Of a stretch of 64,000 nt of DNA, positions 30,255 through 45,497 are shown piece after piece (positions within the stretch are counted from its first letter, which is position 1; each line of letters starts with the position of its first letter). The position numbers and the translations under genes are program-made. The DNA is from Escherichia coli (lineage in GTDB: Bacteria > Pseudomonadota > Gammaproteobacteria > Enterobacterales > Enterobacteriaceae): NCBI RefSeq assembly GCF_965641715.1, contig NZ_OZ282453.1; one strand, written 5' to 3'. The notes under the pieces were generated by a model that saw nothing but the letters and a program-made list of their open reading frames with translations, did not search any database and was not told the origin of the DNA.

Positions 30255-31511
30255 CTAAACGTTATCGTGGGGTGGCTGTTGCTTCGGACGATTGACCATC
30301 ATCATCGGCTTACCTGCTAATAACAGCCATGCCGGAAGCATGACGATACAGAGCAGCGGTAGCAATGTGGTATTGGGTACAACGACTGCCGCCATAAAAA
30401 GACTTAACCAGCCATCGCGTGTTACCACCAGCACGATGCCGAGAATAGCGCAGGAAACGGTTATTGCCGCTGGTACGGCGGGAACGTGCTCATGCAGCAT
30501 CAACCCTAATGCCACGCCGACAAACACTGCCGGGAAGATTCGCCCACCGCGAAAGCCACTGGCGGCAGCAACGACCAGGGCGGCAAGTTTAATTACCGCC
30601 AGCAAAAAGTAATCGCTGGTGCTGAAAGCCTGATTTGCCACCATCTGCTGCATCTCATCCAGCCCTTTAAACAGCGAAACTGGTCCACCAATAACCCCCA
30701 GAATACCGAGAATAAATCCGCCAATACCCAGCACGAGCACCGGATTTTTCATTTGATGCATCATCGCGTGCAACCGTGGTAAGCACCATACGGCGACCAT
30801 CCCTGCTGCGATGGCAATCGCCGCGACAATTGCACCGCTGAGAATATCGGTCATTTCCATCTGTCCGTAATGCGCAATGGGCAGTGAAAAATGGGGATGG
30901 AAAAATAATCCGGTAGTAAGTGCACCAGCTGCTGCCGCCATTAACGGCGCAAAAAGACGATCCCATAGCGGAACTTCACTACTGCCATTTAAGGTTTGCG
31001 AAAATATCAACGCCGCCGCAACAGGTGTACCAAACAGCGCGCCGATGGTTCCGGCAGAGGCTAAAATAGTCCACTCCATTCGGTTGACGCGCGGTAACAG
31101 ACGAGCGCCAATGGCAACCGCAAGGGCGATATTGACGGTCATGATCGGATGTTCCGGCCCCAGGCTGACGCCGCCAGCAAGACCGAGAATTAATGCTACG
31201 ATAAGTCCTGGTAGCGCAGAGGGCGGAACCGGTGCGCCGATCAGCGGTTCACAGGCGGGGTCTGGTCCGGCATGACCCTGGCTGAAACGGATAACCAACC
31301 CCACCGCAATACCCGTTAGCGTTAATACACCGATGATCCAGAGGGGTGAATCCTGGGCTATCCCCAGAGTTCCCGGCAGTCGTTGCCAGAGCAAATTCTG
31401 TAATACCGAGGCGATTTTCATCACCACAATCAGAATAAGACTGGACGCAATCCCAATTGCCACGGCGGGGAGCGATAATAACAACATGGTTCTGGCTCGC
31501 GGATGGAGCAT
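30255..31511 (-). CDS. yfeO: ClC-family voltage-gated chloride channel-like membrane protein
   Basis: 418-aa multi-TM ORF with ClC-like GxGIP/GxFxP-type segments. Confidence 0.85.
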
Positions 31512-31714
31512 GTTCTATTCCTTATGCGGGGTCAGATACTTAGTTTGCCCAGCTTGCAAAAAGGCATCGCTGCAATTGGTGCTGAAACGATAAAGTAATT
31601 GTGTGACCCAGATCGATATTTACAGGGAGCCTGCCTTTCCGGCGTTGTTGTTATGCCCCCAGGTATTTACAGTGTGAGAAAGAATTATTTTGACTTTAGC
31701 GGAGCAGTTGAAGA

Positions 31715-32680
31715 ATGACAAAGTATGCATTAGTCGGTGATGTGGGCGGCACCAACGCACGTCTTGCTCTGTGTGATATTGCCAGTGGTGAAATCTCGCA
31801 GGCTAAGACCTATTCAGGGCTTGATTACCCCAGCCTCGAAGCGGTCATTCGCGTTTATCTTGAAGAACATAAGGTCGAGGTGAAAGACGGCTGTATTGCC
31901 ATCGCTTGCCCAATTACCGGTGACTGGGTGGCAATGACCAACCATACCTGGGCGTTCTCAATTGCCGAAATGAAAAAGAATCTCGGTTTTAGCCATCTGG
32001 AAATTATTAACGATTTTACCGCTGTATCGATGGCGATCCCGATGCTGAAAAAAGAGCATCTGATTCAGTTTGGTGGCGCAGAACCGGTAGAAGGTAAGCC
32101 TATTGCGGTTTACGGTGCCGGAACGGGGCTTGGGGTTGCGCATCTGGTCCATGTCGATAAGCGTTGGGTAAGCTTGCCGGGCGAAGGCGGTCACGTTGAT
32201 TTTGCGCCGAATAGTGAAGAAGAGGCCATTATCCTCGAAATATTGCGTGCGGAAATTGGCCATGTTTCGGCGGAACGCGTGCTTTCTGGCCCTGGGCTGG
32301 TGAATTTGTATCGCGCAATTGTGAAAGCTGACAACCGCCTGCCAGAAAATCTCAAGCCAAAAGATATTACCGAACGCGCGCTGGCTGACAGCTGCACCGA
32401 TTGCCGCCGTGCGTTGTCGCTGTTTTGCGTCATTATGGGCCGTTTTGGCGGCAATCTGGCGCTCAATCTCGGGACATTTGGCGGCGTATTTATTGCGGGC
32501 GGTATCGTGCCGCGCTTCCTTGAGTTCTTCAAAGCCTCTGGTTTTCGTGCCGCATTTGAAGATAAAGGGCGCTTTAAAGAATATGTCCATGATATTCCGG
32601 TGTATCTCATCGTCCATGACAATCCGGGTCTTCTCGGTTCCGGTGCACATTTACGCCAGACCTTAGGGCACATTCTGTAA
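31715..32680 (+). CDS. glk: Glucokinase
   Basis: 321-aa [24 protein letters not shown]... (ROK/glucokinase ATP-binding motif). Confidence 0.96.
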
Positions 32681-32898
32681 ATCCTTCCTGTTATATCGGG
32701 AGGTAACTCTCCCGATAATCTTTTAAATCATACAGTTAATTCAATTTTTCTTTGTGTCCCCTCACAAGGCCGACCTGCGTCACACTTCCGTACAGCGGGA
32801 TTAATTCTCCAGTAAATGCATTATTTGTCTGGTAACGGCGATTTGTTTTGCACGTTCATAATTTCACTCGTCAACTATCACTGAACGAGGAATTAACG

Positions 32899-33225
32899 AT
32901 GAGTAAGAAACTGATTGCCTTATGTGCCTGCCCGATGGGCCTGGCTCACACCTTTATGGCCGCTCAGGCGCTGGAAGAAGCAGCGGTAGAAGCCGGTTAT
33001 GAAGTGAAAATTGAAACCCAGGGCGCGGACGGTATCCAGAATCGCCTGACGGCGCAGGATATCGCCGAAGCGACCATCATCATCCACTCCGTGGCAGTTA
33101 CCCCGGAAGATAACGAACGTTTCGAATCACGCGACGTTTATGAAATCACTTTGCAGGACGCAATTAAAAACGCTGCGGGCATCATCAAAGAAATCGAAGA
33201 GATGATTGCCTCTGAACAACAGTAA
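32899..33225 (+). CDS. fryB: PTS fructose-like EIIB component (108 aa)
   Basis: ATG at 32899 gives MSKKLIALCACPMGLAHTFMAA... with the EIIB phospho-cysteine motif CxxG; track ORF from 32848 is an extension. Confidence 0.85.
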   Translation: MSKKLIALCACPMGLAHTFMAAQALEEAAVEAGYEVKIETQGADGIQNRLTAQDIAEATIIIHSVAVTPEDNERFESRDVYEITLQDAIKNAAGIIKEIEEMIASEQQ

Positions 33226-33246
33226 TATTCGACAGGGATAATTGTT

Positions 33247-34494
33247 ATGGCCATTAAAAAACGCAGTGCAACCGTTGTGCCTGGCGCATCCGGTGCGGCA
33301 GCGGCAGTTAAGAATCCGCAGGCCTCTAAAAGCAGCTTCTGGGGTGAACTCCCGCAGCATGTGATGTCAGGGATTTCACGCATGGTGCCGACCTTAATTA
33401 TGGGCGGTGTGATCCTCGCTTTCAGCCAGCTGATTGCTTATAGCTGGCTTAAAATTCCTGCTGAGATCGGCATCATGGATGCTCTTAATAGCGGGAAATT
33501 CTCCGGTTTCGACCTCTCCTTACTGAAATTTGCCTGGTTGTCGCAGTCCTTCGGCGGCGTGTTGTTTGGTTTTGCCATTCCGATGTTTGCTGCTTTTGTG
33601 GCGAACTCTATCGGTGGCAAACTGGCGTTTCCGGCTGGTTTTATCGGCGGCTTGATGTCTACCCAGCCGACGCAACTGCTGAACTTCGATCCCAGCACTA
33701 TGCAATGGGCGACCTCTTCGCCGGTGCCGTCCACCTTCATTGGTGCGCTGATTATTTCTATCGTTGCCGGTTACCTTGTGAAATGGATGAACCAGAAAAT
33801 CCAGTTACCGGATTTCCTGTTAGCGTTCAAAACCACATTTTTGCTACCGATTCTTTCCGCCATTTTTGTCATGCTGGCGATGTACTACGTCATCACCCCA
33901 TTTGGGGGCTGGATCAACGGCGGTATCCGTACTGTGCTGACTGCCGCAGGTGAGAAGGGCGCGCTGATGTACGCAATGGGGATCGCCGCGGCGACAGCAA
34001 TCGACCTTGGTGGCCCGATCAACAAAGCCGCAGGTTTCGTTGCCTTCAGCTTTACCACTGACCACGTATTACCGGTCACCGCTCGTTCTATCGCTATTGT
34101 TATTCCGCCGATTGGTCTGGGTCTGGCGACCATTATCGACCGCCGTTTAACCGGCAAACGTCTGTTCAGTGCTCAGCTTTATCCGCAGGGTAAAACCGCG
34201 ATGTTCCTGGCGTTTATGGGGATTAGTGAGGGTGCGATTCCGTTTGCACTGGAAAGCCCCATCACCGCCATTCCGTCCTATATGGTTGGCGCGATTGTCG
34301 GCTCAACCGCAGCTGTCTGGCTGGGCGCAGTGCAATGGTTCCCGGAGTCCGCTATCTGGGCATGGCCGCTGGTCACTAACCTGGGCGTCTATATGGCGGG
34401 GATCGCGCTGGGGGCAGTCATTACTGCGCTGATGGTGGTGTTCCTGCGTCTGATGATGTTCCGTAAAGGCAAATTGTTAATCGATAGCCTGTAA
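33247..34494 (+). CDS. fryC: PTS fructose-like EIIC permease component
   Basis: 415-aa multi-TM ORF directly downstream of fryB. Confidence 0.85.
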
Positions 34495-34508
34495 GAAGGA
34501 AAATCCAG

Positions 34509-35594
34509 ATGACATTACTCGCTTCGCTGCGTGACTGGCTTAAGGCGCAACAACTGGATGCGGTGCTTCTCTCCTCACGGCAGAACAAACAGCCGCATCT
34601 GGGGATCTCCACCGGATCAGGCTATGTGCTGATTAGCCGTGAAAGTGCGCACATTCTGGTGGACTCGCGCTATTACGCGGATGTAGAAGCCCGCACGCAA
34701 GGTTACCAGCTGCATTTGCTTGACGCGACGCACACGCTTACAACCATCGCCAGGCAAATCATTGCCGATGAGCAGTTGCAAACGCTCGGTTTTGAAGGCC
34801 AGCAGGTGAGTTGGGAAACCGCGCACCGCTGGCAGTCTGAACTCAATGCGAAACTGGTAAGCGCCACGCCGGATGTGCTGCGGCAAATCAAAACGCCAGA
34901 GGAGGTGGAGAAAATCCGTCTTGCCTGTGGGATTGCCGATCGCGGTGCAGAGCATATTCGCCGCTTTATTCAGGCGGGGATGAGCGAGCGCGAGATAGCC
35001 GCTGAACTGGAGTGGTTTATGCGCCAGCAGGGCGCAGAAAAAACCTCTTTTGACACCATTGTCGCCAGTGGCTGGCGTGGGGCGCTGCCGCACGGCAAAG
35101 CCAGCGACAAGATTGTTGCAGCGGGAGAGTTTGTCACTCTCGATTTCGGTGCGCTGTATCAGGGCTACTGCTCTGATATGACGCGCACCTTGCTGGTGAA
35201 TGGCGAAGGGGTGAGCGCCGAATCTCATCCGCTGTTTAACGTCTATCAGATTGTTTTGCAGGCACAGCTCGCAGCAATCTCTGCAATTCGCCCCGGCGTG
35301 CGCTGCCAGCAGGTTGACGACGCCGCGCGTCGGGTGATTACCGAGGCAGGATTTGGCGACTATTTTGGTCACAACACCGGTCATGCTATCGGCATTGAAG
35401 TTCATGAAGATCCGCGTTTTTCACCGCGGGACACCACGACGCTACAGCCAGGCATGTTACTGACCGTGGAGCCGGGGATTTATTTGCCAGGGCAAGGGGG
35501 CGTGCGCATCGAGGATGTTGTGCTGGTCACCCCGCAAGGCGCAGAAGTGCTCTACGCCATGCCGAAAACAGTGTTGCTCACGGGAGAGGCATAA
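34509..35594 (+). CDS. ypdF: Xaa-Pro aminopeptidase (M24 family)
   Basis: 361-aa ORF with M24 metal-binding signature ([13 protein letters not shown]). Confidence 0.85.
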
Positions 35595-36631
35595 TGGATT
35601 TATCGCTATTGAAAGCGTTGAGCGAGGCAGATGCGATCGCCTCCTCGGAACAGGAAGTGCGGCAGATCCTGCTGGAAGAAGCGGATCGCCTGCAAAAAGA
35701 AGTGCGATTTGATGGGCTGGGATCGGTGCTGATCCGCCTGAATGAATCGACAGGTCCGAAGGTGATGATCTGTGCGCATATGGACGAAGTGGGATTTATG
35801 GTGCGCAGCATCTCCCGCGAAGGGGCGATTGATGTGCTGCCGGTTGGCAATGTACGCATGGCTGCCCGCCAGCTGCAGCCGGTGCGCATCACCACCCGTG
35901 AAGAGTGCAAAATTCCAGGCCTGCTTGACGGCGACCGGCAGGGGAATGACGTCAGCGCCATGCGCGTGGATATTGGCGCGCGCTCGTATGACGAAGTGAT
36001 GCAGGCGGGAATTCGTCCAGGCGATCGCGTCACGTTCGATACCACTTTTCAGGTTCTCCCCCACCAGCGAGTGATGGGGAAAGCCTTTGATGACCGCCTC
36101 GGTTGCTATCTGCTGGTGACGTTACTACGTGAGCTGCACGACGCCGAACTGCCTGCGGAAGTGTGGCTGGTGGCCAGTTCCAGCGAAGAGGTGGGATTAC
36201 GCGGCGGGCAAACTGCCACCCGCGCGGTGTCGCCGGACGTCGCCATTGTCCTTGATACCGCCTGCTGGGCGAAAAACTTTGATTATGGCGCGGCTAACCA
36301 TCGCCAGATTGGTAACGGCCCGATGCTGGTGTTAAGCGACAAGTCACTGATTGCGCCGCCAAAACTCACCGCCTGGATCGAAACCGTGGCGGCAGAAATT
36401 GGCGTGCCGTTACAGGCGGATATGTTCAGTAACGGCGGCACTGACGGTGGAGCGGTGCACTTAACCGGTACCGGCGTACCCACAGTGGTGATGGGGCCTG
36501 CCACCCGCCACGGACATTGCGCCGCGTCGATTGCCGATTGCCGCGACATTTTGCAGATGGAGCAACTTTTATCTGCCCTTATTCAACGTCTTACGCGTGA
36601 GACGGTTGTTCAACTGACGGATTTCAGATGA
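35594..36631 (+). CDS. ypdE: M42-family aminopeptidase
   Basis: 345-aa ORF; start overlaps the ypdF stop by 1 nt. Confidence 0.85.
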
Positions 36632-36655
36632 TCTCCTGATTAACCCGGAGCGGTT

Positions 36656-39151
36656 ATGTTAACGATTCAATTTCTCTGTCCTTTGCCTAACGGTCTACAT
36701 GCTCGTCCGGCGTGGGAACTTAAAGAACAGTGCAGCCAGTGGCAAAGCGAAATCACTTTTATTAACCATCGCCAGAACGCAAAGGCCGATGCCAAAAGCT
36801 CGCTGGCGCTGATTGGCACCGGCACCCTATTTAATGACAGTTGCAGCCTGAACATTAGCGGCAGCGATGAAGAGCAGGCGCGGCGCGTGCTGGAAGAGTA
36901 CATCCAGGTGCGCTTTATCGACAGCGACAGCGTTCAGCCTACGCAGGCAGAACTGACGGCGCATCCGCTGCCGCGTTCATTAAGCCGCCTTAACCCGGAT
37001 TTACTATACGGCAATGTGCTGGCAAGCGGCGTCGGCGTGGGTACGCTGACCCTGTTACAAAGCGACAGCCTCGACAGTTATCGGGCAATCCCCGCCAGTG
37101 CGCAAGATTCCACCCGGCTGGAGCACAGCCTGGCAACGCTTGCCGAGCAACTGAACCAGCAATTGCGTGAGCGTGACGGCGAAAGCAAAACTATCCTCAG
37201 CGCCCATTTGTCGCTGATTCAGGATGATGAATTTGCAGGCAATATCAGTCGCCTGATGACAGAACAGCATCAGGGGCTGGGGGCGGCGATCATCAGCAAT
37301 ATGGAGCAGGTTTGCGCCAAACTTTCTGCTTCTACCAGCGATTATCTGCGCGAACGTGTTAGCGACATTCGCGATATTAGCGAACAGTTGCTGCATATTA
37401 CCTGGCCGGAACTGAAGCCGCGCAACAATCTGGTGCTGGAAAAACCGACTATTCTGGTGGCCGAGGATTTAACCCCAAGCCAGTTTTTAAGCCTGGAGTT
37501 AAAAAATCTTGCGGGCATGATTCTGGAGAAAACCGGGCGCACCTCGCATACCCTGATTCTGGCCCGCGCCTCGGCGATCCCGGTACTGAGCGGCCTGCCG
37601 CTGGATGCGATTGCCCGTTATGCCGGGCAACCTGCAGTGCTTGACGCCCAGTGCGGCGTGCTGGCGATTAACCCGAATGACGCGGTTAGCGGTTATTATC
37701 AGGTCGCGCAGACGCTGGCGGATAAACGCCAAAAACAACAGGCGCAGGCTGCCGCGCAGCTGGCTTATTCCCGTGATAACAAGCGTATTGATATCGCGGC
37801 GAATATTGGCACCGCTCTGGAAGCGCCTGGCGCGTTTGCCAACGGCGCGGAAGGCGTCGGGCTGTTCCGTACCGAAATGCTCTATATGGATCGCGACAGC
37901 GCGCCGGACGAGCAGGAGCAATTTGAAGCCTACCAGCAGGTGCTACTGGCAGCGGGCGACAAGCCGATTATCTTCCGCACAATGGACATCGGAGGCGATA
38001 AAAGCATTCCTTATCTGAATATTCCCCAGGAAGAGAACCCGTTCCTCGGCTATCGCGCGGTACGTATTTACCCGGAATTTGCTGGCCTGTTCCGCACTCA
38101 ACTGCGGGCCATTTTGCGCGCCGCCAGTTTCGGCAACGCCCAGTTGATGATCCCGATGGTTCACAGCCTCGATCAGATCTTATGGGTGAAGGGCGAGATC
38201 CAAAAAGCGATCGTTGAGCTTAAGCGCGATGGCCTGCGTCATGCAGAGACGATTACGCTGGGTATCATGGTGGAAGTGCCGTCGGTGTGCTACATCATCG
38301 ATCACTTCTGCGATGAGGTCGATTTCTTCAGTATCGGCTCCAACGATATGACCCAGTATCTGTATGCGGTCGATCGTAATAACCCGCGCGTATCGCCGCT
38401 ATATAACCCGATTACGCCATCGTTCCTGCGCATGTTGCAGCAAATAGTTACCACTGCGCATCAGCGGGGCAAATGGGTAGGCATTTGCGGTGAACTGGGC
38501 GGTGAAAGTCGTTATCTGCCGCTACTGCTTGGGCTGGGACTGGACGAGTTAAGCATGAGTAGTCCGCGCATTCCGGCGGTGAAAAGCCAGCTTCGTCAAC
38601 TGGATAGCGAGGCGTGTCGGGAACTGGCGCGTCAGGCATGTGAATGCCGCAGCGCGCAGGAAATTGAAGCGTTACTCACCGCCTTTACGCCGGAAGAAGA
38701 CGTTCGCCCATTACTGGCGCTGGAGAATATCTTTGTTGATCAGTCCTTTAGCAATAAAGAGCAGGCGATCCAGTTCCTGTGCGGTAACCTCGGCGTTAAC
38801 GGGCGCACTGAACATCCGTTCGAGCTGGAAGAGGATGTCTGGCAGCGGGAAGAGATTGTCACCACTGGCGTTGGTTTTGGCGTGGCGATCCCGCACACCA
38901 AATCTCAGTGGATCCGTCATTCCAGTATCAGCATTGCCCGGCTGGCGAAACCGGTTGACTGGCAGTCAGAAATGGGCGAAGTCGAACTGGTGATCATGCT
39001 GACGCTGGGTGCTAACGAAGGGATGAATCATGTGAAAGTCTTCTCGCAGCTGGCGCGTAAACTGGTGAATAAAAACTTCCGCCAGTCGTTGTTTGCCGCG
39101 CAAGATGCACAAAGTATCCTGACGCTGCTGGAAACAGAATTAACCTTCTGA
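36656..39151 (+). CDS. fryA: PTS multiphosphoryl transfer protein (HPr-like, EI-like and EIIA-like domains fused)
   Basis: 831-aa ORF; N-terminal HPr-like segment (LPNGLHARPA), central EI homology (GGRTSH, GSNDMTQY), C-terminal EIIA-Fru-like domain. Confidence 0.9.
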   Translation: MLTIQFLCPLPNGLHARPAWELKEQCSQWQSEITFINHRQNAKADAKSSLALIGTGTLFNDSCSLNISGSDEEQARRVLEEYIQVRFIDSDSVQPTQAELTAHPLPRSLSRLNPDLLYGNVLASGVGVGTLTLLQSDSLDSYRAIPASAQDSTRLEHSLATLAEQLNQQLRERDGESKTILSAHLSLIQDDEFAGNISRLMTEQHQGLGAAIISNMEQVCAKLSASTSDYLRERVSDIRDISEQLLHITWPELKPRNNLVLEKPTILVAEDLTPSQFLSLELKNLAGMILEKTGRTSHTLILARASAIPVLSGLPLDAIARYAGQPAVLDAQCGVLAINPNDAVSGYYQVAQTLADKRQKQQAQAAAQLAYSRDNKRIDIAANIGTALEAPGAFANGAEGVGLFRTEMLYMDRDSAPDEQEQFEAYQQVLLAAGDKPIIFRTMDIGGDKSIPYLNIPQEENPFLGYRAVRIYPEFAGLFRTQLRAILRAASFGNAQLMIPMVHSLDQILWVKGEIQKAIVELKRDGLRHAETITLGIMVEVPSVCYIIDHFCDEVDFFSIGSNDMTQYLYAVDRNNPRVSPLYNPITPSFLRMLQQIVTTAHQRGKWVGICGELGGESRYLPLLLGLGLDELSMSSPRIPAVKSQLRQLDSEACRELARQACECRSAQEIEALLTAFTPEEDVRPLLALENIFVDQSFSNKEQAIQFLCGNLGVNGRTEHPFELEEDVWQREEIVTTGVGFGVAIPHTKSQWIRHSSISIARLAKPVDWQSEMGEVELVIMLTLGANEGMNHVKVFSQLARKLVNKNFRQSLFAAQDAQSILTLLETELTF

Positions 39152-39153
39152 CG

Positions 39154-40011
39154 TTAGCCCTGAAAACGGGCGCTGTACTCTCCCGGCGTCAGACCAAACT
39201 GACGCCGGAAAACGCGACAAAAATAGTCGCTATCCGGAAAACCGCAACGCTGTGCCACTTCATGAATTGACAGATGATATTTCTGCAAAATCATCCTCGC
39301 CTTCGCCATTCGCACCCAACGCACATACTCGATAAAACGCATCGTTCCATGCTGAGCAAACAGTTTTGACAGATGATTGGGCGTGATATTAAAAAACTGC
39401 GCCACGCTCTCGCGGGTGAGCGGCTGGGCATAATTATCCTGAACCCAGTTACAAATGCTGTGATAGAGAAAATCGCCGCGCGGCTGCGAATTGCCCGGCG
39501 GCATATTCACCACGTTACGGCAAAGATGCAGCAAACTTAACACCAGCGGCTGAATGATATTTTGCTCCAGCGGCGAACGGCTAAGATGGGTGAGGGCGGT
39601 AAGCATCGCTTCACCTTCACCGCGTTGCAGGCTGGGAAGCTGGATCTGGCGAGCAGGATGCAACAACGACGTGGTGCGGCTATCGTAAAACGATAACCCA
39701 AGCCAGGTCGGAGCGAACACCAGGCTTAACAGCATCACCGGTTTGTTGTTGACCGGTAAATTAGCCGCGCGCGCCGGAATAAACAGCATTTCTCCTTCCA
39801 CCAAACGTTGCTGCTTTGCTTCCAGCAGATTGCCGTATTCGCCGCGCAGCACGATATCCAGACGGGGAAAATCAATACATAAACTGCCCACCGGCAACGA
39901 GGCAGGCTGGCTGGCAAACCAGACGCGCCCCAGTAGTTGCGGGTTAAGCACCAGGCCGCTGAACAGATCGGCGAAAAATTGTTGATCGGCGGGCAAGCCT
40001 GGTGCTTTCAT
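39154..40011 (-). CDS. ypdC: AraC-family transcriptional regulator
   Basis: 285-aa ORF with C-terminal AraC-type HTH; stop 2 nt after the fryA stop (convergent). Confidence 0.85.
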   Translation of the reverse strand: MKAPGLPADQQFFADLFSGLVLNPQLLGRVWFASQPASLPVGSLCIDFPRLDIVLRGEYGNLLEAKQQRLVEGEMLFIPARAANLPVNNKPVMLLSLVFAPTWLGLSFYDSRTTSLLHPARQIQLPSLQRGEGEAMLTALTHLSRSPLEQNIIQPLVLSLLHLCRNVVNMPPGNSQPRGDFLYHSICNWVQDNYAQPLTRESVAQFFNITPNHLSKLFAQHGTMRFIEYVRWVRMAKARMILQKYHLSIHEVAQRCGFPDSDYFCRVFRRQFGLTPGEYSARFQG

Positions 40012-40023
40012 GAAAGTTCCCGA

Positions 40024-40758
40024 TTAAAGATGCATTAACTGGCGAAATTCTTTAACTTTGCTGCGGCTGACCGGCACTTCAAAATCCAGATCTTTCAGCC
40101 GCAGAATGTAGGTGTTATTAAACCACGGTTCGATCTCGCGGATTTTGTTCAGATTGACACAAAATGAGCGATGGCAGCGGAAAAAATGCGACGGCGGCAG
40201 TTTGCTGCAAAATTCGGTAATGTTCATCGGCATTACATAGGATTCACGCCGCGTATAAACAAAGGTCATTTTCTCGTGCGCTTCGGCGTAATAGATATCG
40301 TTAATGGGGGTGACGATTATTCGCTCATCTTTCACCAGATTAATGGTGTCATTCTCACGCGTTACCGTCGCGGCAGGCGTACTGCTGGTCTGCTGTTGCT
40401 GCCAGGCCGCTTCCAGTTTTTGCAGCATCCCGGTAATGCGTGACTCCTGATACGGTTTGAGAATGTAGTCAAACGCCTCAAGTTCAAACGCTTCTACCGC
40501 ATGTTCTTTCCACGCGGTGATAAACACAATAAACGGTTTATGGGCGAACTGGCTGATGTTTTGTGCCAGCAACACACCATCCAGCGACGGAATATTGATA
40601 TCCAGAAAAATGGCGTCGACGCGGTTATGCTGCAAAAACTTCAACACGTCCAGACCGTCGTCAAAGGTGCCGACAATCTCCATCTGGCTGTGCTCTTTAA
40701 TTAGCCAGCTCAGTTCCTGTTGTGCCAGGAATTCGTCTTCAACAATGATGACTTTCAC
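40024..40758 (-). CDS. ypdB: LytTR-family response regulator (244 aa, GTG start)
   Basis: GTG at 40758 gives (M)KVIIVEDEFLAQQELSWLIKEH...; receiver domain plus LytTR DNA-binding domain; track ORF uses a TTG 6 codons upstream. Confidence 0.85.
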   Translation of the reverse strand: MKVIIVEDEFLAQQELSWLIKEHSQMEIVGTFDDGLDVLKFLQHNRVDAIFLDINIPSLDGVLLAQNISQFAHKPFIVFITAWKEHAVEAFELEAFDYILKPYQESRITGMLQKLEAAWQQQQTSSTPAATVTRENDTINLVKDERIIVTPINDIYYAEAHEKMTFVYTRRESYVMPMNITEFCSKLPPSHFFRCHRSFCVNLNKIREIEPWFNNTYILRLKDLDFEVPVSRSKVKEFRQLMHL

Positions 40759-40772
40759 AATATCACTCCAGC

Positions 40773-42470
40773 TCAAAGCAATAACGTAGCCTGTGAGGCG
40801 ACTGGGGTGCGTTGGTTAGGAATGTAAAACGCAATTTCCGTTCCTGGTTCCAGGCGGCGGATATGCAGCCCCTCGCCATACAATAACTTCACGCGATGAT
40901 GGACATTCAGCAGGCCAATTTTATTGCCCGGCATTTCATTCGCTTCGACCCGCTCAATCACCTTTGGATCGATGCCGTGCCCGGTATCCCGCACCGCAAT
41001 GCGTACCCGATTGCCGCACTCTGCAACGCTGATGGTGACAACGCCTTTACCTTTGCAAGGCTGGATACCGTGGACAATGGCATTCTCCACCAACGGCTGG
41101 ATCAGCAGGCTGGGAATGCAGCAATTCACCTCTTCATCAATATCATAGATAACCGTCAGCTTGTCGCCAAAGCGGGCCTGCTCAATGGCAATATAGTCTT
41201 TAATTTGATACAGCTCTTTTTTGATATCGATTTGCTCATCGTCTTTTAATTCAATGTTATAGCGCAGATAACGCGACAGATTAAAGATCAGCTGGCGAGC
41301 GGTATCCGGATTCAGACGGATCGACGATGAAATAGCGTTCAGAGCGTTAAACAGAAAATGGGGATTAATTTTGCTTTGCAGGGCGCGAAGCTCTGCCTTA
41401 TTTGCCATTTCACGTAGCTGCTCGGCGCGTGAAACCTCCAGTTGCGTGGAGATGATTTGCGACAGACCAACCGCCATTTCCTGTAATGACGAGGTTATCT
41501 GATGCGCGTGGCAGTAGTAAATTTTCAGCGTTCCGGTCACAACGCCTTTCTCCCACAATGGGATCACCAGCATGGAATGAATCTCTGGTGTGCGGTGGGC
41601 TTCATCATTGTTTTTAATGATGATTTTTCCGTAATTCATCGCCTGACGGGTAGTCGGGCTAATGAAGTCATCGCCGTTCTGATAGTTATGTTCACCCACG
41701 CCAACATAGGCCAGCACATGATCGGTATTAGTAATCGCCACCGCATCGGCGTGAATGTCATCGCGAATAATTTCACAAACTTTGCGTAATGACTCGCTAT
41801 TGACATGGCGAAACAGCGGCAGCGTTTTGTTGGCGATATCCAGCGCCAACTTGGCCTGCCGCGCGGCGCTGGCCTCTTTTTCGCCCTCAACGCTTTGCAC
41901 CAGAAGCACAATAAAGCCGATACAGACGCTGCCGAGGATCATTGGAATCCCGATTTTAGAGACGATATCGATCCCCAACGCGGTAGTTGGTGCCCAGACA
42001 ATCACCAGAATCATGGTCAACGTTTCACACAACATGCCGCCGAGAATACCGACGCGCCAGCGCTGTGCTTTGGGGATTTTCAGGTTGATCCAGCCCGATA
42101 TACAACCCGCCAGAATGCTGGTGATAAAGCAGGGGATCGCCGTCACGCCGCCGATATCAATTAAATAACGATGAATACCCGCAATCACGCCGGTAATGAT
42201 GCCCACCCACGGGCCAAACAGAATCCCGCCGGACATCACCGCGATAATACGTACGTTCACCAGCGAGCCTTCTACGGGAACGCCGGACCAGGTGCTGAAC
42301 AGAGCGAACAGCGAGAAAATGGCGGTAACGGCGAGCAACTCTCTCGGTGAGTGTGCCGACTTGTGCAACAGTTCGCGAAACAGGCGGATACGGATGAGAA
42401 AGAACAGGCAGATAAGCATTAACGCTGCCCGATCGAAGACCGCCAGCAGCATGTTGAATATTTCGTGCAC
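40773..42470 (-). CDS. ypdA: LytS-type sensor histidine kinase (565 aa, GTG start)
   Basis: N-terminal multi-TM 5TM-Lyt domain, GAF-like region, HisKA_3/HATPase_c (RDTGHGI); immediately upstream of ypdB. Confidence 0.88.
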
Positions 42471-42846
42471 GGGTGACTCTGAATAAGGATTAAACCTCTA
42501 TGATAGGTAACCTGAAGGCTGATGACCAGCAGGCCGTTTTTGAGGAAAAACCACAATTTTAAAAGGGGATTGATAGATAAATGGTGTATTAGCAATGCAT
42601 CTCTTGATAATGCACTTCTGGTTAGTAAATTTATTGAAATTATTATGTTAATAAAATGAGTGGTAATTTTCTTGTTAGCGCAGATAATTTTCCTGTTTTT
42701 AAAGCAGAGTTCCTCATTTAACGTCATTAATAAAAATGTTCTAAAACGCTGGACAGACAGAAATTAATCAGGCTATTTTCAAAACAGCCACCATCGTGGC
42801 AGCGTCGCTCGGACGGTCCGGGCGCTAACGTTAATCTGAGGAAATT

Positions 42847-44085
42847 ATGGCTGACACTCGCCCTGAACGTCGCTTTACGCGCATTGATCGTCTCCCGCCC
42901 TATGTTTTTAACATTACCGCTGAACTGAAAATGGCTGCGCGTCGGCGCGGCGAAGATATTATCGATTTCAGTATGGGTAACCCGGACGGTGCGACTCCGC
43001 CGCATATCGTCGAAAAATTATGTACTGTGGCCCAGCGCCCGGACACGCATGGTTACTCCACTTCACGCGGCATTCCGCGGCTACGTCGCGCCATTTCCCG
43101 TTGGTATCAGGATCGCTACGACGTTGAAATCGACCCGGAATCAGAAGCCATCGTCACTATTGGTTCGAAAGAGGGCCTGGCGCATCTGATGCTGGCGACA
43201 CTGGATCACGGTGACACAGTGCTGGTGCCGAATCCAAGTTACCCCATTCATATTTACGGCGCGGTGATTGCCGGGGCTCAGGTACGCTCAGTGCCGCTGG
43301 TGGAAGGTGTCGATTTCTTCAACGAACTGGAGCGCGCCATTCGTGAAAGTTATCCGAAACCGAAGATGATGATCCTCGGCTTCCCGTCGAACCCAACCGC
43401 GCAATGCGTGGAACTGGAGTTCTTCGAAAAGGTTGTGGCGCTGGCGAAACGCTACGATGTGCTGGTGGTCCACGACCTGGCCTATGCGGACATCGTCTAC
43501 GATGGCTGGAAAGCGCCGTCAATCATGCAGGTGCCAGGTGCACGCGATGTGGCGGTCGAGTTCTTTACGCTGTCGAAAAGCTACAACATGGCGGGCTGGC
43601 GTATCGGCTTTATGGTTGGCAACAAAACGCTGGTCAGTGCGCTGGCACGTATTAAAAGCTATCACGATTACGGCACCTTTACGCCGTTGCAGGTGGCGGC
43701 GATTGCGGCGCTGGAGGGCGATCAACAGTGTGTGCGCGACATTGCCGAACAGTACAAACGCCGCCGTGATGTATTGGTTAAAGGGCTGCATGAAGCGGGC
43801 TGGATGGTCGAAATGCCGAAGGCTTCGATGTATGTCTGGGCGAAAATACCGGAACCGTATGCTGCCATGGGCTCGCTGGAATTTGCCAAGAAATTGCTTA
43901 ACGAAGCGAAGGTCTGTGTCTCTCCGGGGATTGGCTTTGGCGACTATGGTGATACGCATGTGCGCTTTGCACTGATTGAAAACCGCGACCGTATTCGTCA
44001 GGCGATTCGTGGGATTAAAGCGTTGTTCCGTGCCGACGGTTTACTACCCGCCAGCAGCAAACATATTCACGAAAACGCGGAATAA
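42847..44085 (+). CDS. alaC: Glutamate-pyruvate aminotransferase (PLP-dependent)
   Basis: 412-aa [26 protein letters not shown]...; class I aminotransferase with PLP lysine ([10 protein letters not shown]). Confidence 0.93.
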
Positions 44086-44104
44086 ACACCGACCTCAGAA
44101 ATGC

Positions 44105-44132
44105 AAACAGGAGCCTGATGGCTCCTGTTTTT
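44105..44132. terminator. Bidirectional rho-independent terminator between alaC and ypdK
   Basis: Hairpin aaacaggagcc-tgat-ggctcctgttt followed by ttt. Confidence 0.7.
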
Positions 44133-44149
44133 CATTGCACAGTTTGCTT

Positions 44150-44221
44150 TTAGATCATCAGGGCAAAAGTACCGGCCCAAACGATGACCATAAAAGAAAT
44201 GCCCATAAAGAAATATTTCAC
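44150..44221 (-). CDS. ypdK: Very small membrane protein YpdK (23 aa, GTG start)
   Basis: Minus strand reads gtg aaa tat ttc ttt atg ggc att tct ttt atg gtc atc gtt tgg gcc ggt act ttt gcc ctg atg atc taa = (M)KYFFMGISFMVIVWAGTFALMI; below the ORF-track size cut-off. Confidence 0.7.
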   Translation of the reverse strand: MKYFFMGISFMVIVWAGTFALMI

Positions 44222-44576
44222 TTTACATCTCTCCGCGTAATTGCTGTTACGCCTGAATGACTTCATTACACCTGATACAGTGAGTTGACACCGGGCAAAA
44301 CGACCTTAAAAGTCCTGTATTTTACCGTGGGCATCACCCCAGAATTCTGAGCTAAACTGCTCGAGACGGCGCTAATGTACGCCTAAAACTGAAACGAGAC
44401 AAGAGGCATTTTCTTATTTACTTTTAGTAACTTACAGGTGTCTCATATCGGCGACAGTTTAATTTCTGACGGTAATAATTAGAGATTCAGCGAAGGAAAA
44501 AACCTTAAGAAAAAAGCCATAAAAACCATGAGGTTATTATGGCTTATGTGAGGAGGTAAAGAGTCAGAGCAGTTTG

Positions 44577-45497
44577 TTAAATGTATAACGACGATTCTCC
44601 CACCGGGCGCGTTTTAAAGCGACGGTGGATCCAGAGGTACTGCTCCGGTGCGCGCATGATCTCTTTCTCGATAATCTTGTTCATATAGGCAGCGGCTTGA
44701 TTTTCATCTGTCGGGTAGCCTTCCATCTCTGGGGTGATGAACAAACGATATCCGCTGTAATCCGCTTTTCTTACCATCGTTACGGTCAACATGGCTGCGC
44801 CAGAGAGACGGGAGAGAACATAGGTGCCATTGGTTGTGGCGACATTTTCTACCGCAAAGAACGGCGCGAAGGAGCTGCCTTTACGACCATAATCCTGATC
44901 GGGAGCAAACCATACCGCTTCACCTTTCTTCAGTGCACTGACAATGCCGCGCAGATTATTTCTGCCGATCATCGCTTTGTTAGAGCGCATGCGACCACGG
45001 GTCTGCACCCATTCCATCAGCTGATTATTATGTGGACGATAGGTAGCCATCATTGGCTGACAAAGTCCCATCACGCGGCCGCCCAGTTCCAGCGACATAA
45101 AATGGACGCCGACAACCATTACGCCGCGATTTTGCATTTGTGCGCGTTTAAGGTTATCCAGCCCTTCAACATCAAACCATTTACGTACGCGACTGTCGGG
45201 CCAGAACCACGCCATGCCGGTTTCTACCAGCGCCATGCCGAGTGAACGAAAGTTTTCGGCAATCATCTTCTCGCGTTCTTCCGCAGAATGCTGCGGGAAG
45301 CAAAGTTCCAGGTTTTTACGGGCGATAGATTCACGCCGTTTCAGGAATGGTCGCGCCATTGCGCCAATACGCGTGCCGAGAAAGCAGAGAACAGGATAAG
45401 GAAGCTGTACCCAAAGCCAGAGTACACCAAGCCCAAACCATGTGAGCCAGTAGCGAGGATATAGAAACTCGCGGGAAAATTTGCATTGTGGAAACAT
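44577..45497 (-). CDS. lpxP: Lipid A palmitoleoyl-ACP acyltransferase (cold-induced), 306 aa
   Basis: ATG at 45497 gives MFPQCKFSREFLYPRYWLTWFGLGVLWLW...; track ORF extends 22 codons upstream. Confidence 0.9.
   Translation of the reverse strand: MFPQCKFSREFLYPRYWLTWFGLGVLWLWVQLPYPVLCFLGTRIGAMARPFLKRRESIARKNLELCFPQHSAEEREKMIAENFRSLGMALVETGMAWFWPDSRVRKWFDVEGLDNLKRAQMQNRGVMVVGVHFMSLELGGRVMGLCQPMMATYRPHNNQLMEWVQTRGRMRSNKAMIGRNNLRGIVSALKKGEAVWFAPDQDYGRKGSSFAPFFAVENVATTNGTYVLSRLSGAAMLTVTMVRKADYSGYRLFITPEMEGYPTDENQAAAYMNKIIEKEIMRAPEQYLWIHRRFKTRPVGESSLYI

Follow-up and report, generated by a model that had tools for sequence, protein, structure and literature searches.

YpdC as the probable dedicated activator of the fry operon beside the pyruvate sensor YpdA/YpdB of Escherichia coli

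Described systems and the ypdC-fry locus

Direct repeats that lie about two helical turns apart and abut the -35 position are a hallmark of AraC/XylS activators. The rhaBAD and araBAD promoters are activator-dependent and carry two AraC-type half-sites, the proximal one placed against the -35 position, with CRP just upstream; ChbR of E. coli is an AraC-family regulator dedicated to a phosphotransferase system (PTS) and catabolic operon, chbBCARFG, which is silent without inducer. Here we analyse ypdC, ypdB and ypdA, three genes at positions 39154-42470 of a stretch of Escherichia coli DNA of 64,000 nucleotides (nt; contig NZ_OZ282453.1, hereafter the window), and the adjacent PTS operon fryB-fryC-ypdF-ypdE-fryA (fry). 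Gene order across genera and a conserved footprint upstream of fryB suggest that YpdC is a dedicated AraC/RhaS-type activator of fry, and that ypdA-ypdB (ypdAB) is a separate pyruvate-sensing neighbour which co-transcribes ypdC in E. coli; we assign this reading a probability of roughly 0.6.

YpdC would share the build of RhaS, RhaR and AraC, with a cupin-like sensor domain followed by a C-terminal double helix-turn-helix (HTH). As at rhaBAD and araBAD, the fryB promoter region (PfryB) holds two direct-repeat half-sites about two helical turns apart and a good -10 hexamer, the proximal repeat abuts or overlaps the missing -35, and a CRP-like box stands upstream. It differs from these promoters in its repeat period of 20 nt instead of the usual 21, in the weakness of the CRP half-site and in that the YpdC operator is a predicted one; furthermore, ypdC is convergent with fry and abuts its last structural gene, whereas the described regulator genes are divergent or in their own operon. 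To the ChbR system the likeness is that of a dedicated AraC-family regulator and a PTS operon. However, chbR lies inside its operon and the chb PTS, a member of the Lac/cellobiose family, relies on general EI and HPr, while fry encodes its own fused HPr-EI-EIIA protein and two peptidases.

The neighbouring two-component system is described as well. In the microarray work of Fried (2013), yhjX is said to be the sole strong YpdB target. YpdA and YpdB, renamed PyrS and PyrR (PyrSR), form a pyruvate-responsive LytS/LytTR system with yhjX as target, to which YpdB binds through the direct repeat GGCATTTCAT-N11-GGCATTTCAT with its 11-nt spacer (PMC5552118, PMC4847170, PMC7660256), in agreement with the pyruvate response and distant target that a preliminary description of the locus had given. 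When compared with the BtsS/BtsR and YpdA/YpdB systems, ypdA and ypdB of the window prove to be E. coli ypdA and ypdB themselves, with the full domain set: all four LytS-type domains are encoded at 40773-42470 on the minus strand (E-values 3e-42 to 6e-7), a protein with receiver and LytTR domains is encoded 14 nt downstream of ypdA, and YpdB is 100% identical to the common E. coli YpdB.

YpdC is listed among uncharacterised AraC-family factors (PMC4797297), it is not mentioned in the YpdA/YpdB work of Behr et al. (2017), and no function or substrate has been assigned to Fry (PMC5364489). Both ypdA-ypdB-ypdC and fryBC-ypdF-ypdE-fryA have been treated as operons (PMC2731931), and pyruvate-sensing studies use delta-ypdABC strains as YpdAB-null (PMC10653868).

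The open reading frames (ORFs), their domains and the annotation confirm ypdC, ypdB and ypdA on the minus strand, tail-to-tail with fryA, as previously described. By megablast, the 3.3-kb stretch 39154-42470 is found in 5,422 of 5,426 complete E. coli genomes. RefSeq labels the homologous stretch ypdC, ypdB and ypdA, with fryB-fryC-ypdF-ypdE-fryA on one side (fryA under the label 'ptsP') and alaC on the other. This is a core, already annotated E. coli locus, far beyond chance. The best identity of the stretch to any of the complete genomes is 99.4%, most lying at 95-99%, which indicates that the E. coli lineage of the window is not exactly represented among RefSeq complete genomes.

ypdC and ypdAB across genera

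Using one genome per species and 10 kb of flank around ypdC, scored by tblastn with the window proteins, we compared 29 orthologous loci. fryA was found within the flank of ypdC in 28 of the 29. ypdAB adjoined ypdC in only 15 loci, from Escherichia, Citrobacter, Pseudocitrobacter and Kluyvera, and was absent from the remaining 14 (two of Salmonella and 12 of Enterobacter, Pluralibacter, Superficieibacter and Lelliottia). Salmonella bongori and S. enterica (subsp. arizonae and diarizonae) have the order alaC / ypdC >< fryA-ypdE-ypdF-fryC-fryB / glk, without ypdA or ypdB. In E. hormaechei, where ypdAB is likewise missing from the locus, ypdC and a complete fry operon lie elsewhere in the chromosome; rnk stands beside the ypdC/fry block in all 12 loci of the Enterobacter, Pluralibacter, Superficieibacter and Lelliottia group, and rna on its far side in 10. 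Conversely, alaC and glk enclose ypdA-ypdB alone in Superficieibacter, E. asburiae and Kosakonia, with 0-42 nt from the ypdB stop to glk and neither ypdC nor fry between them; one Superficieibacter locus (L034) also has the ypdC/fry block at rnk-rna. A second search that started from FryC, not YpdC, added two loci: an enterobacterial contig with a third context, in which a DUF2058 gene is followed by fryB through fryA and a convergent gene for a 282-amino-acid (aa) AraC protein 47% identical to YpdC, and a Buttiauxella contig with rna, fryB and fryC up to the contig end.

The synteny across these contexts indicates that the conserved unit is a six-gene block of ypdC and the fry operon, and that alaC, ypdAB and glk form a separate backbone. 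Judged by gene order, ypdC is predicted to complete, as sixth gene, a portable block that has entered between ypdB and glk here and occupies other chromosomal sites in other genera; ypdAB and ypdC appear to be neighbours only in the Escherichia/Citrobacter lineage and to make up two functionally separate units. ypdC does not belong to the conserved gene set of the YpdA/YpdB family, in which ypdAB stands alone in several genera, and it is not a conserved third component of that system, both being found apart. Within the alaC/ypdAB/glk backbone, ypdA-ypdB is, from the literature, the known low-affinity pyruvate sensor acting on the distant yhjX promoter.

Salmonella retains traces of the former arrangement. 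About 130 nt upstream of its ypdC are a degenerate copy of the ypdB 3' end, and a patch of 30-50 nt from upstream of the E. coli ypdA promoter survives. The remnant and the patch indicate that the earlier gene order resembled that of E. coli and that ypdAB was deleted from it, with ypdC and fry left in place. The ratio of nonsynonymous to synonymous substitution rates (dN/dS) of ypdC within Salmonella is 0.06-0.07, so that YpdC is still constrained (purifying selection) without YpdAB; between E. coli and Salmonella, Citrobacter or Enterobacter it is 0.09-0.15. Relative to E. coli, the genera of the rnk-rna group have YpdB 89-92% and YpdC 63-75% identical, which shows that the two parts evolve at different rates.

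These data bear on the description of ypdA-ypdB-ypdC as one regulatory cassette, which had been proposed for this stretch. Taken literally, it means a genuine three-gene cassette, in which YpdC takes part in the pyruvate response, with or downstream of YpdAB, and the adjacency of fry is incidental. Spacers of only 14 and 12 nt with no internal promoter fit such a cassette, as do its listing as one operon (PMC2731931), the practice in the field of deleting ypdABC as a unit (PMC10653868) and the retention of ypdABC without adjacent fry in Citrobacter amalonaticus. It is difficult to reconcile with the Superficieibacter, Enterobacter and Kosakonia loci in which ypdAB, flanked by alaC and glk, lacks ypdC, with ypdC lying without ypdAB in Salmonella and the 12 other species loci, always beside fry, and with the purifying selection on Salmonella ypdC despite the loss of ypdAB. 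We consider the cassette improbable; across genera ypdC co-occurs with fry, and the earlier grouping is not upheld.

The lineage-specific neighbourhood nevertheless shapes transcription in E. coli. Because ypdC starts 12 nt after ypdB and the promoter scan found no promoter-like site on the minus strand over 40012-41140, the supply of ypdC depends on transcription of ypdAB from the ypdA promoter. Because the stop codons of fryA (39149-39151) and ypdC (39154-39156) converge at a distance of 2 nt without a terminator, fry and ypdC transcripts must overlap. It is conceivable that insertion of the block after ypdB in Escherichia/Citrobacter thereby created a new coupling of pyruvate sensing to FryA, by operon capture and convergent interference and not by a shared DNA site. 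With ypdC as third gene of the pyruvate-sensor operon, the amount of fry activator would follow the ypdAB promoter; induced fry transcription would read antisense into ypdC, ypdB and ypdA and damp both regulators; and sensing of external pyruvate would be linked to FryA, an alternative EI/HPr that consumes phosphoenolpyruvate. The ypdC-ypdAB coupling and the terminator-less convergence with fryA are lineage-specific and their regulatory consequences possible but unsupported, and we regard a coupling of this kind as quite unlikely.

In Escherichia, Pseudocitrobacter and the rnk-rna group, ypdC and fryA almost always end within 1-4 nt of each other, one locus having 13 nt; in the third context the distance is 29 nt. 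The junction has been widened repeatedly by insertions, to about 100 nt in Salmonella (L002/L003) and 282-1134 nt in Citrobacter (282-368 nt in L016-L019, 1134 nt in L012/L014). The largest inserts measure 8.2 kb in one Kluyvera (L021) and 6.8 kb in one Citrobacter (L032), the latter holding an ORF of 1016 aa. On the other side of ypdC, E. hormaechei, E. soli and Lelliottia have a 206-aa flavin reductase gene (PF01613) whose end lies 1 nt ahead of ypdC (L005 9379-9999, L026, L030, L035). It was rejected as a seventh block gene, being present in only a subset of the Enterobacter/Lelliottia loci, and is a lineage-specific addition, since the other rnk-rna loci are without it. As for the backbone, alaC, which encodes a glutamate-pyruvate aminotransferase, and glk always flank the pyruvate-sensor genes across genera (L039, L040, L041; window 31715-44085), and the conserved alaC neighbourhood joins a pyruvate sensor to a pyruvate-using enzyme.

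The fryB promoter footprint and YpdC

The 280 nt upstream of fryB were aligned for 21 loci, representing 18 non-redundant species. Sequence next to glk or rna was unalignable; from 32768 on, an ungapped conserved block of about 95 nt was present in all 21 loci and thus common to all chromosomal contexts. Within it lie an upstream box, two 18-nt direct repeats and a -10 hexamer (Table 1). The repeats have the consensus GCATyAwTTnTCyrGTAA and a start-to-start distance of 20 nt, and are identical to each other at 10-15 of 18 positions within every aligned species; 21 nt of variable sequence separate repeat 2 from the -10 hexamer. No -35-like hexamer was found 16-18 nt from CATAAT, where AACGGC stands, and a consensus promoter scan found no sigma-70 site in 32681-32898. 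With fryB transcription predicted to start near 32869, the repeats would cover approximately -71 to -34. The candidate operator, 32798-32835, has the layout of AraC/XylS-type operators in all 18 species and three genomic contexts. At the third-context locus, the repeats keep their spacing and their 3' halves (TCCAGCAA, TCCTGTAA) but differ in their 5' halves.

Upstream of the repeats, the element 32766-32787, which contains the box TCACACTT, might be a weak CRP site; its centre, 32776.5, lies at approximately -92.5 when counted from the predicted start. It is kept as a candidate only, because its left half matches TGTGA at just 2-3 of 5 positions. Two other readings of the block were rejected. 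A palindrome (core AATGCATT, arms CCAG...CTGG) is present in E. coli and not conserved, while the direct repeats hold in all species. A sigma-54 promoter was discarded by inspection, the GG-to-GC spacing being 18 nt, not 11, and TTGCA not being conserved.

The C-terminal double HTH of YpdC, of the AraC/XylS type, matches PF12833 (E-value 1e-20) and PF00165 over residues 204-281, and sequence matches in PDB are the DNA-binding domains of AraC, MarA, SoxS, GadX and Rns. Pfam returned nothing over residues 1-200. The NCBIfam model RhaR aligns to residues 47-281 far below cut-off; with 56 bits against the 525 bits of the RhaR/RhaS equivalog cut-offs, YpdC is not an orthologue of either. An AlphaFold (AF2) model built from 32 orthologues (mean pLDDT, the predicted local distance difference test score, 84) has a beta-rich N-terminal domain of 7-8 strands, then long helices, then a C-terminal domain of seven helices. 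Foldseek with this model returned full-length Rns, CsvR and ToxT, the RhaR regulatory domain (probability 0.97 but low TM-score, the template modelling score) and many AraC-family DNA-binding domains with TM-scores up to 0.9. As modelled, YpdC would be an ordinary two-domain AraC/XylS protein of the putative ligand-sensing class, with a cupin-like N-terminal domain.

These elements suggest the following mechanism. The cupin-like domain of YpdC would bind an effector, probably the substrate of the Fry PTS or its product. The double HTH would then occupy the two 18-nt repeats and recruit RNA polymerase to an otherwise silent fryB promoter that has a conserved -10 hexamer and no -35, possibly joined by CRP farther upstream, as at rhaBAD and araBAD. 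Once activated, fry would supply its own HPr-EI-EIIA chain (FryA) together with IIB, IIC and two aminopeptidases.

That either YpdB or YpdC might control fry had been left undecided in the preliminary description; the evidence is in favour of YpdC and disfavours YpdB. Direct control by phospho-YpdB, which would carry the pyruvate signal to the adjacent operon, is suggested by the physical closeness of the genes in E. coli and by the fry repeats themselves, which resemble the YpdB motif GGCATTTCAT in their 'GCATT' core and in their period (20 against 21). Yet a tandem GGCATTTCAT-N11-GGCATTTCAT site was not found anywhere in the window at up to 3 mismatches, and single half-sites occur there at chance level (10 found, 7.8 expected). 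In a relaxed tandem search the best match at PfryB had 8 mismatches in 20, which is background (260 such places in the window), and the alaC-ypdA intergenic region reached 7 of 20. Moreover, Salmonella preserves the PfryB footprint although ypdAB is absent from its locus and Behr et al. detected no YpdA-type kinase in the genus (PMC5552118). Since a tandem site is lacking and the footprint persists in Salmonella, YpdB was rejected as a direct local regulator, and we judge direct control of fry by YpdB very improbable.

Several points weigh against YpdC as the fry activator. Chromatin immunoprecipitation with exonuclease treatment (ChIP-exo) of tagged YpdC in K-12, part of a survey of 40 candidate factors, gave no peaks under the conditions used; the authors suggest that YpdC needs an activating condition (PMC8464067). 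All promoter-relative positions given here depend on a predicted start. With a position weight matrix (PWM) of the half-site, the tandem site scores 49.4 bits at PfryB against 8.7 bits for the next best in the 64-kb window, and in the 10 scanned loci, out of 13, that include a fryB upstream region the top match occurs once, always upstream of fryB; since the matrix was derived from these very sites, this test of uniqueness is in part circular. A 13/18 match at offset 20 occurs at 3 places in the 64 kb, so that the repeat is modestly unusual in one genome and the weight of the argument lies in its cross-species conservation in register. In C. amalonaticus, ypdABC is intact and constrained, with unrelated genes beyond ypdC in all four contigs examined. 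Finally, ypdC is physically within the ypdAB transcription unit in E. coli and Citrobacter.

Some of this would also suit a different assignment, in which the PfryB repeats are the site of another regulator, either a global one or one encoded elsewhere, and YpdC regulates something else or nothing. In addition to the missing ChIP-exo peaks, the PWM scan gave no match that could serve autoregulation upstream of ypdC (in Salmonella and Enterobacter loci), nor any upstream of ypdA or alaC, and the operator was assigned to its protein by synteny and family habit. Against this, site and ypdC move together through three chromosomal contexts, and the locus with the 47%-identical YpdC has different 5' halves in both repeats at preserved spacing. 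A repeat layout that abuts the -35 is, by established knowledge, typical of AraC/XylS activators, and the palindromic alternative is not conserved across species. We therefore think it unlikely that a different protein uses the repeats.

Allele variation raises the further question of whether ypdC and fry are still functional in E. coli. Loss of one base from a run of GGG near codon 189 of ypdC (window 39444-39446) shifts the frame and yields a 239-aa YpdC without HTH; the frameshifted allele is present in 208 of the 5,426 complete E. coli genomes and the intact 32-mer in 4,416. ypdC of the window is intact and differs otherwise from the frameshifted allele (L044 8001-8860; L045) by a single base, which places the window in or near that lineage, where the fry genes are all intact. 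In Shigella flexneri, codon 191 of ypdC is changed from CAG to the stop codon TAG, ypdA is truncated and ypdF is split. YpdB-YpdC fusions of 317 or 373 aa, which arose from internal deletions, are encoded in a few E. coli assemblies (P0122, P0123, P0003) and show the closeness of the two reading frames.

If the block were a decaying, effectively silent remnant in E. coli, no regulator would matter in practice; the frameshifted allele, the Shigella lesions and the lack of an assigned substrate or function for Fry (PMC5364489) could be read in this way. However, all six block genes are intact in the window, the intact ypdC 32-mer is far from rare, dN/dS across genera ranges from 0.06 to 0.15, conservation of the promoter footprint is strong, and an in-frame fryA deletion altered fitness in LB medium (PMC5364489). 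A silent remnant is accordingly hard to defend, and we rate it improbable.

The locus itself is an ordinary, textbook E. coli locus, and what is new is the specific assignment of YpdC to a predicted operator defined to the base (32798-32835). As the fry activator, YpdC would gain a function, being among the last unassigned AraC-family regulators of E. coli, and the Fry PTS would gain a first regulatory handle; the predicted operator, with YpdC in trans, could serve an inducer screen and hence the search for the fry substrate. Natural controls exist: ypdAB has been lost by deletion in S. bongori and in S. enterica subsp. arizonae and diarizonae, and it lies at a site separate from ypdC/fry in Superficieibacter and Enterobacter. 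Published "YpdAB-null" delta-ypdABC strains also lack the probable fry activator, which could confound pyruvate-sensing phenotypes (PMC10653868).

Features of the locus and the alaC-ypdA intergenic region

All five ORFs of the fry operon are full length in the window, with the expected domains, and together make up a Fru-family PTS operon with IIB, IIC and a donor chain (HPr, EI and EIIA_2 domains in fryA). The coordinates are collected in Table 1. The hairpin after glk would insulate fry from glk read-through. The mechanically called ORF of ypdB reaches further than the gene, to a TTG at 40776. The promoter-like site of ypdA is kept in Escherichia, Citrobacter, Kluyvera, Superficieibacter and Enterobacter; in Kosakonia only its -35 is alignable. 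No RNA family of Rfam matched within 31000-45000.

Table 1. Features of the ypdC/fry block and its alaC/ypdAB/glk surroundings (positions in the window)
Feature	Position	Strand	Description and basis
glk	31715..32680	+	Backbone gene; right-hand boundary of the inserted ypdC/fry block; ORF and annotation
Terminator-like hairpin after glk, TATCGGGAGG-TAAC-TCTCCCGATA, then T-rich tail	32694..32717	+	Escherichia-specific in the fryB-upstream alignment
Upstream box TCACACTT	32780-32787 (element 32766..32787)	+	TCACA(Y)TT near-invariant in 18 species; conserved GA before it (32772-32773)
Direct repeat 1, GGATTAATTCTCCAGTAA	32798..32815	+	Promoter-distal half of the proposed YpdC operator
Direct repeat 2, GCATTATTTGTCTGGTAA	32818..32835	+	Promoter-proximal half; ends 21 nt before the -10, abuts the -35 position
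fryB -10 hexamer, CATAAT	32857..32862	+	Essentially invariant in 18 species; Shine-Dalgarno next, ATG at 32899
fryB	32899..33225	+	PTS IIB of Fru family, 108 aa; PF02302, NCBIfam 'PTS fructose-like IIB', TIGR00829
fryC	33247..34494	+	PTS IIC, 415 aa; PF02378, TIGR01427
ypdF	34509..35594	+	M24 aminopeptidase, 361 aa; PF00557/PF01321; NF007310 equivalog, 815 bits
ypdE	35594..36631	+	M42 aminopeptidase, 345 aa; PF05343; NF007421 equivalog, 681 bits
fryA	36656..39151	+	Fused HPr-EI-EIIA(Fru) phosphotransferase, 831 aa; PF00381, PF05524, PF00391, PF02896, PF00359
fryA/ypdC tail-to-tail junction	39152..39153		2 nt between stops; no terminator
ypdC	39154..40011	-	AraC/RhaS-type regulator, 285 aa; HTH_18/HTH_AraC, E-value 1e-20; fry synteny
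ypdB-ypdC spacer	40012..40023	-	12 nt, without promoter or terminator
ypdB (pyrR)	40024..40758	-	Response_reg and LytTR, 244 aa, GTG start; E-value 1e-34; PF00072 and PF04397
ypdA (pyrS)	40773..42470	-	LytS-type histidine kinase, 565 aa, GTG start; 5TM-5TMR_LYT, GAF, His_kinase (PF06580) and HATPase_c, E-value 3e-42
Promoter-like site of ypdA, TGGTCA-17-TATCAT	42500..42528	-	Promoter scan
alaC	42847..44085	+	Backbone gene divergent from ypdA; left-hand anchor of the alaC/ypdAB/glk backbone

The intergenic region between alaC and ypdA holds further conserved sequence. Adjacent to the ypdA -35, on its upstream side, is the block GAGGAAAAACCACAATTTTAAAAGGGGATT (42542-42571), which is conserved throughout the alignment of eight genera; a patch of 30-50 nt of this region is retained in Salmonella despite the loss of ypdAB and their promoter, and the block may serve alaC or another regulator. 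At 42664-42676 and 42685-42697 (21-nt spacing) lies a direct repeat of 13 nt, TAATTTTCTTGTT / TAATTTTCCTGTT, which does not follow the YpdB consensus and is only partly conserved beyond Escherichia/Citrobacter. The approximately 100 nt directly upstream of alaC (42749-42846) are almost invariant from Escherichia to Kosakonia and are likely an alaC leader or control region; they contain a GCCAC-N4-GTGGC hairpin at 42787-42803 that the scan scores as a minus-strand terminator.

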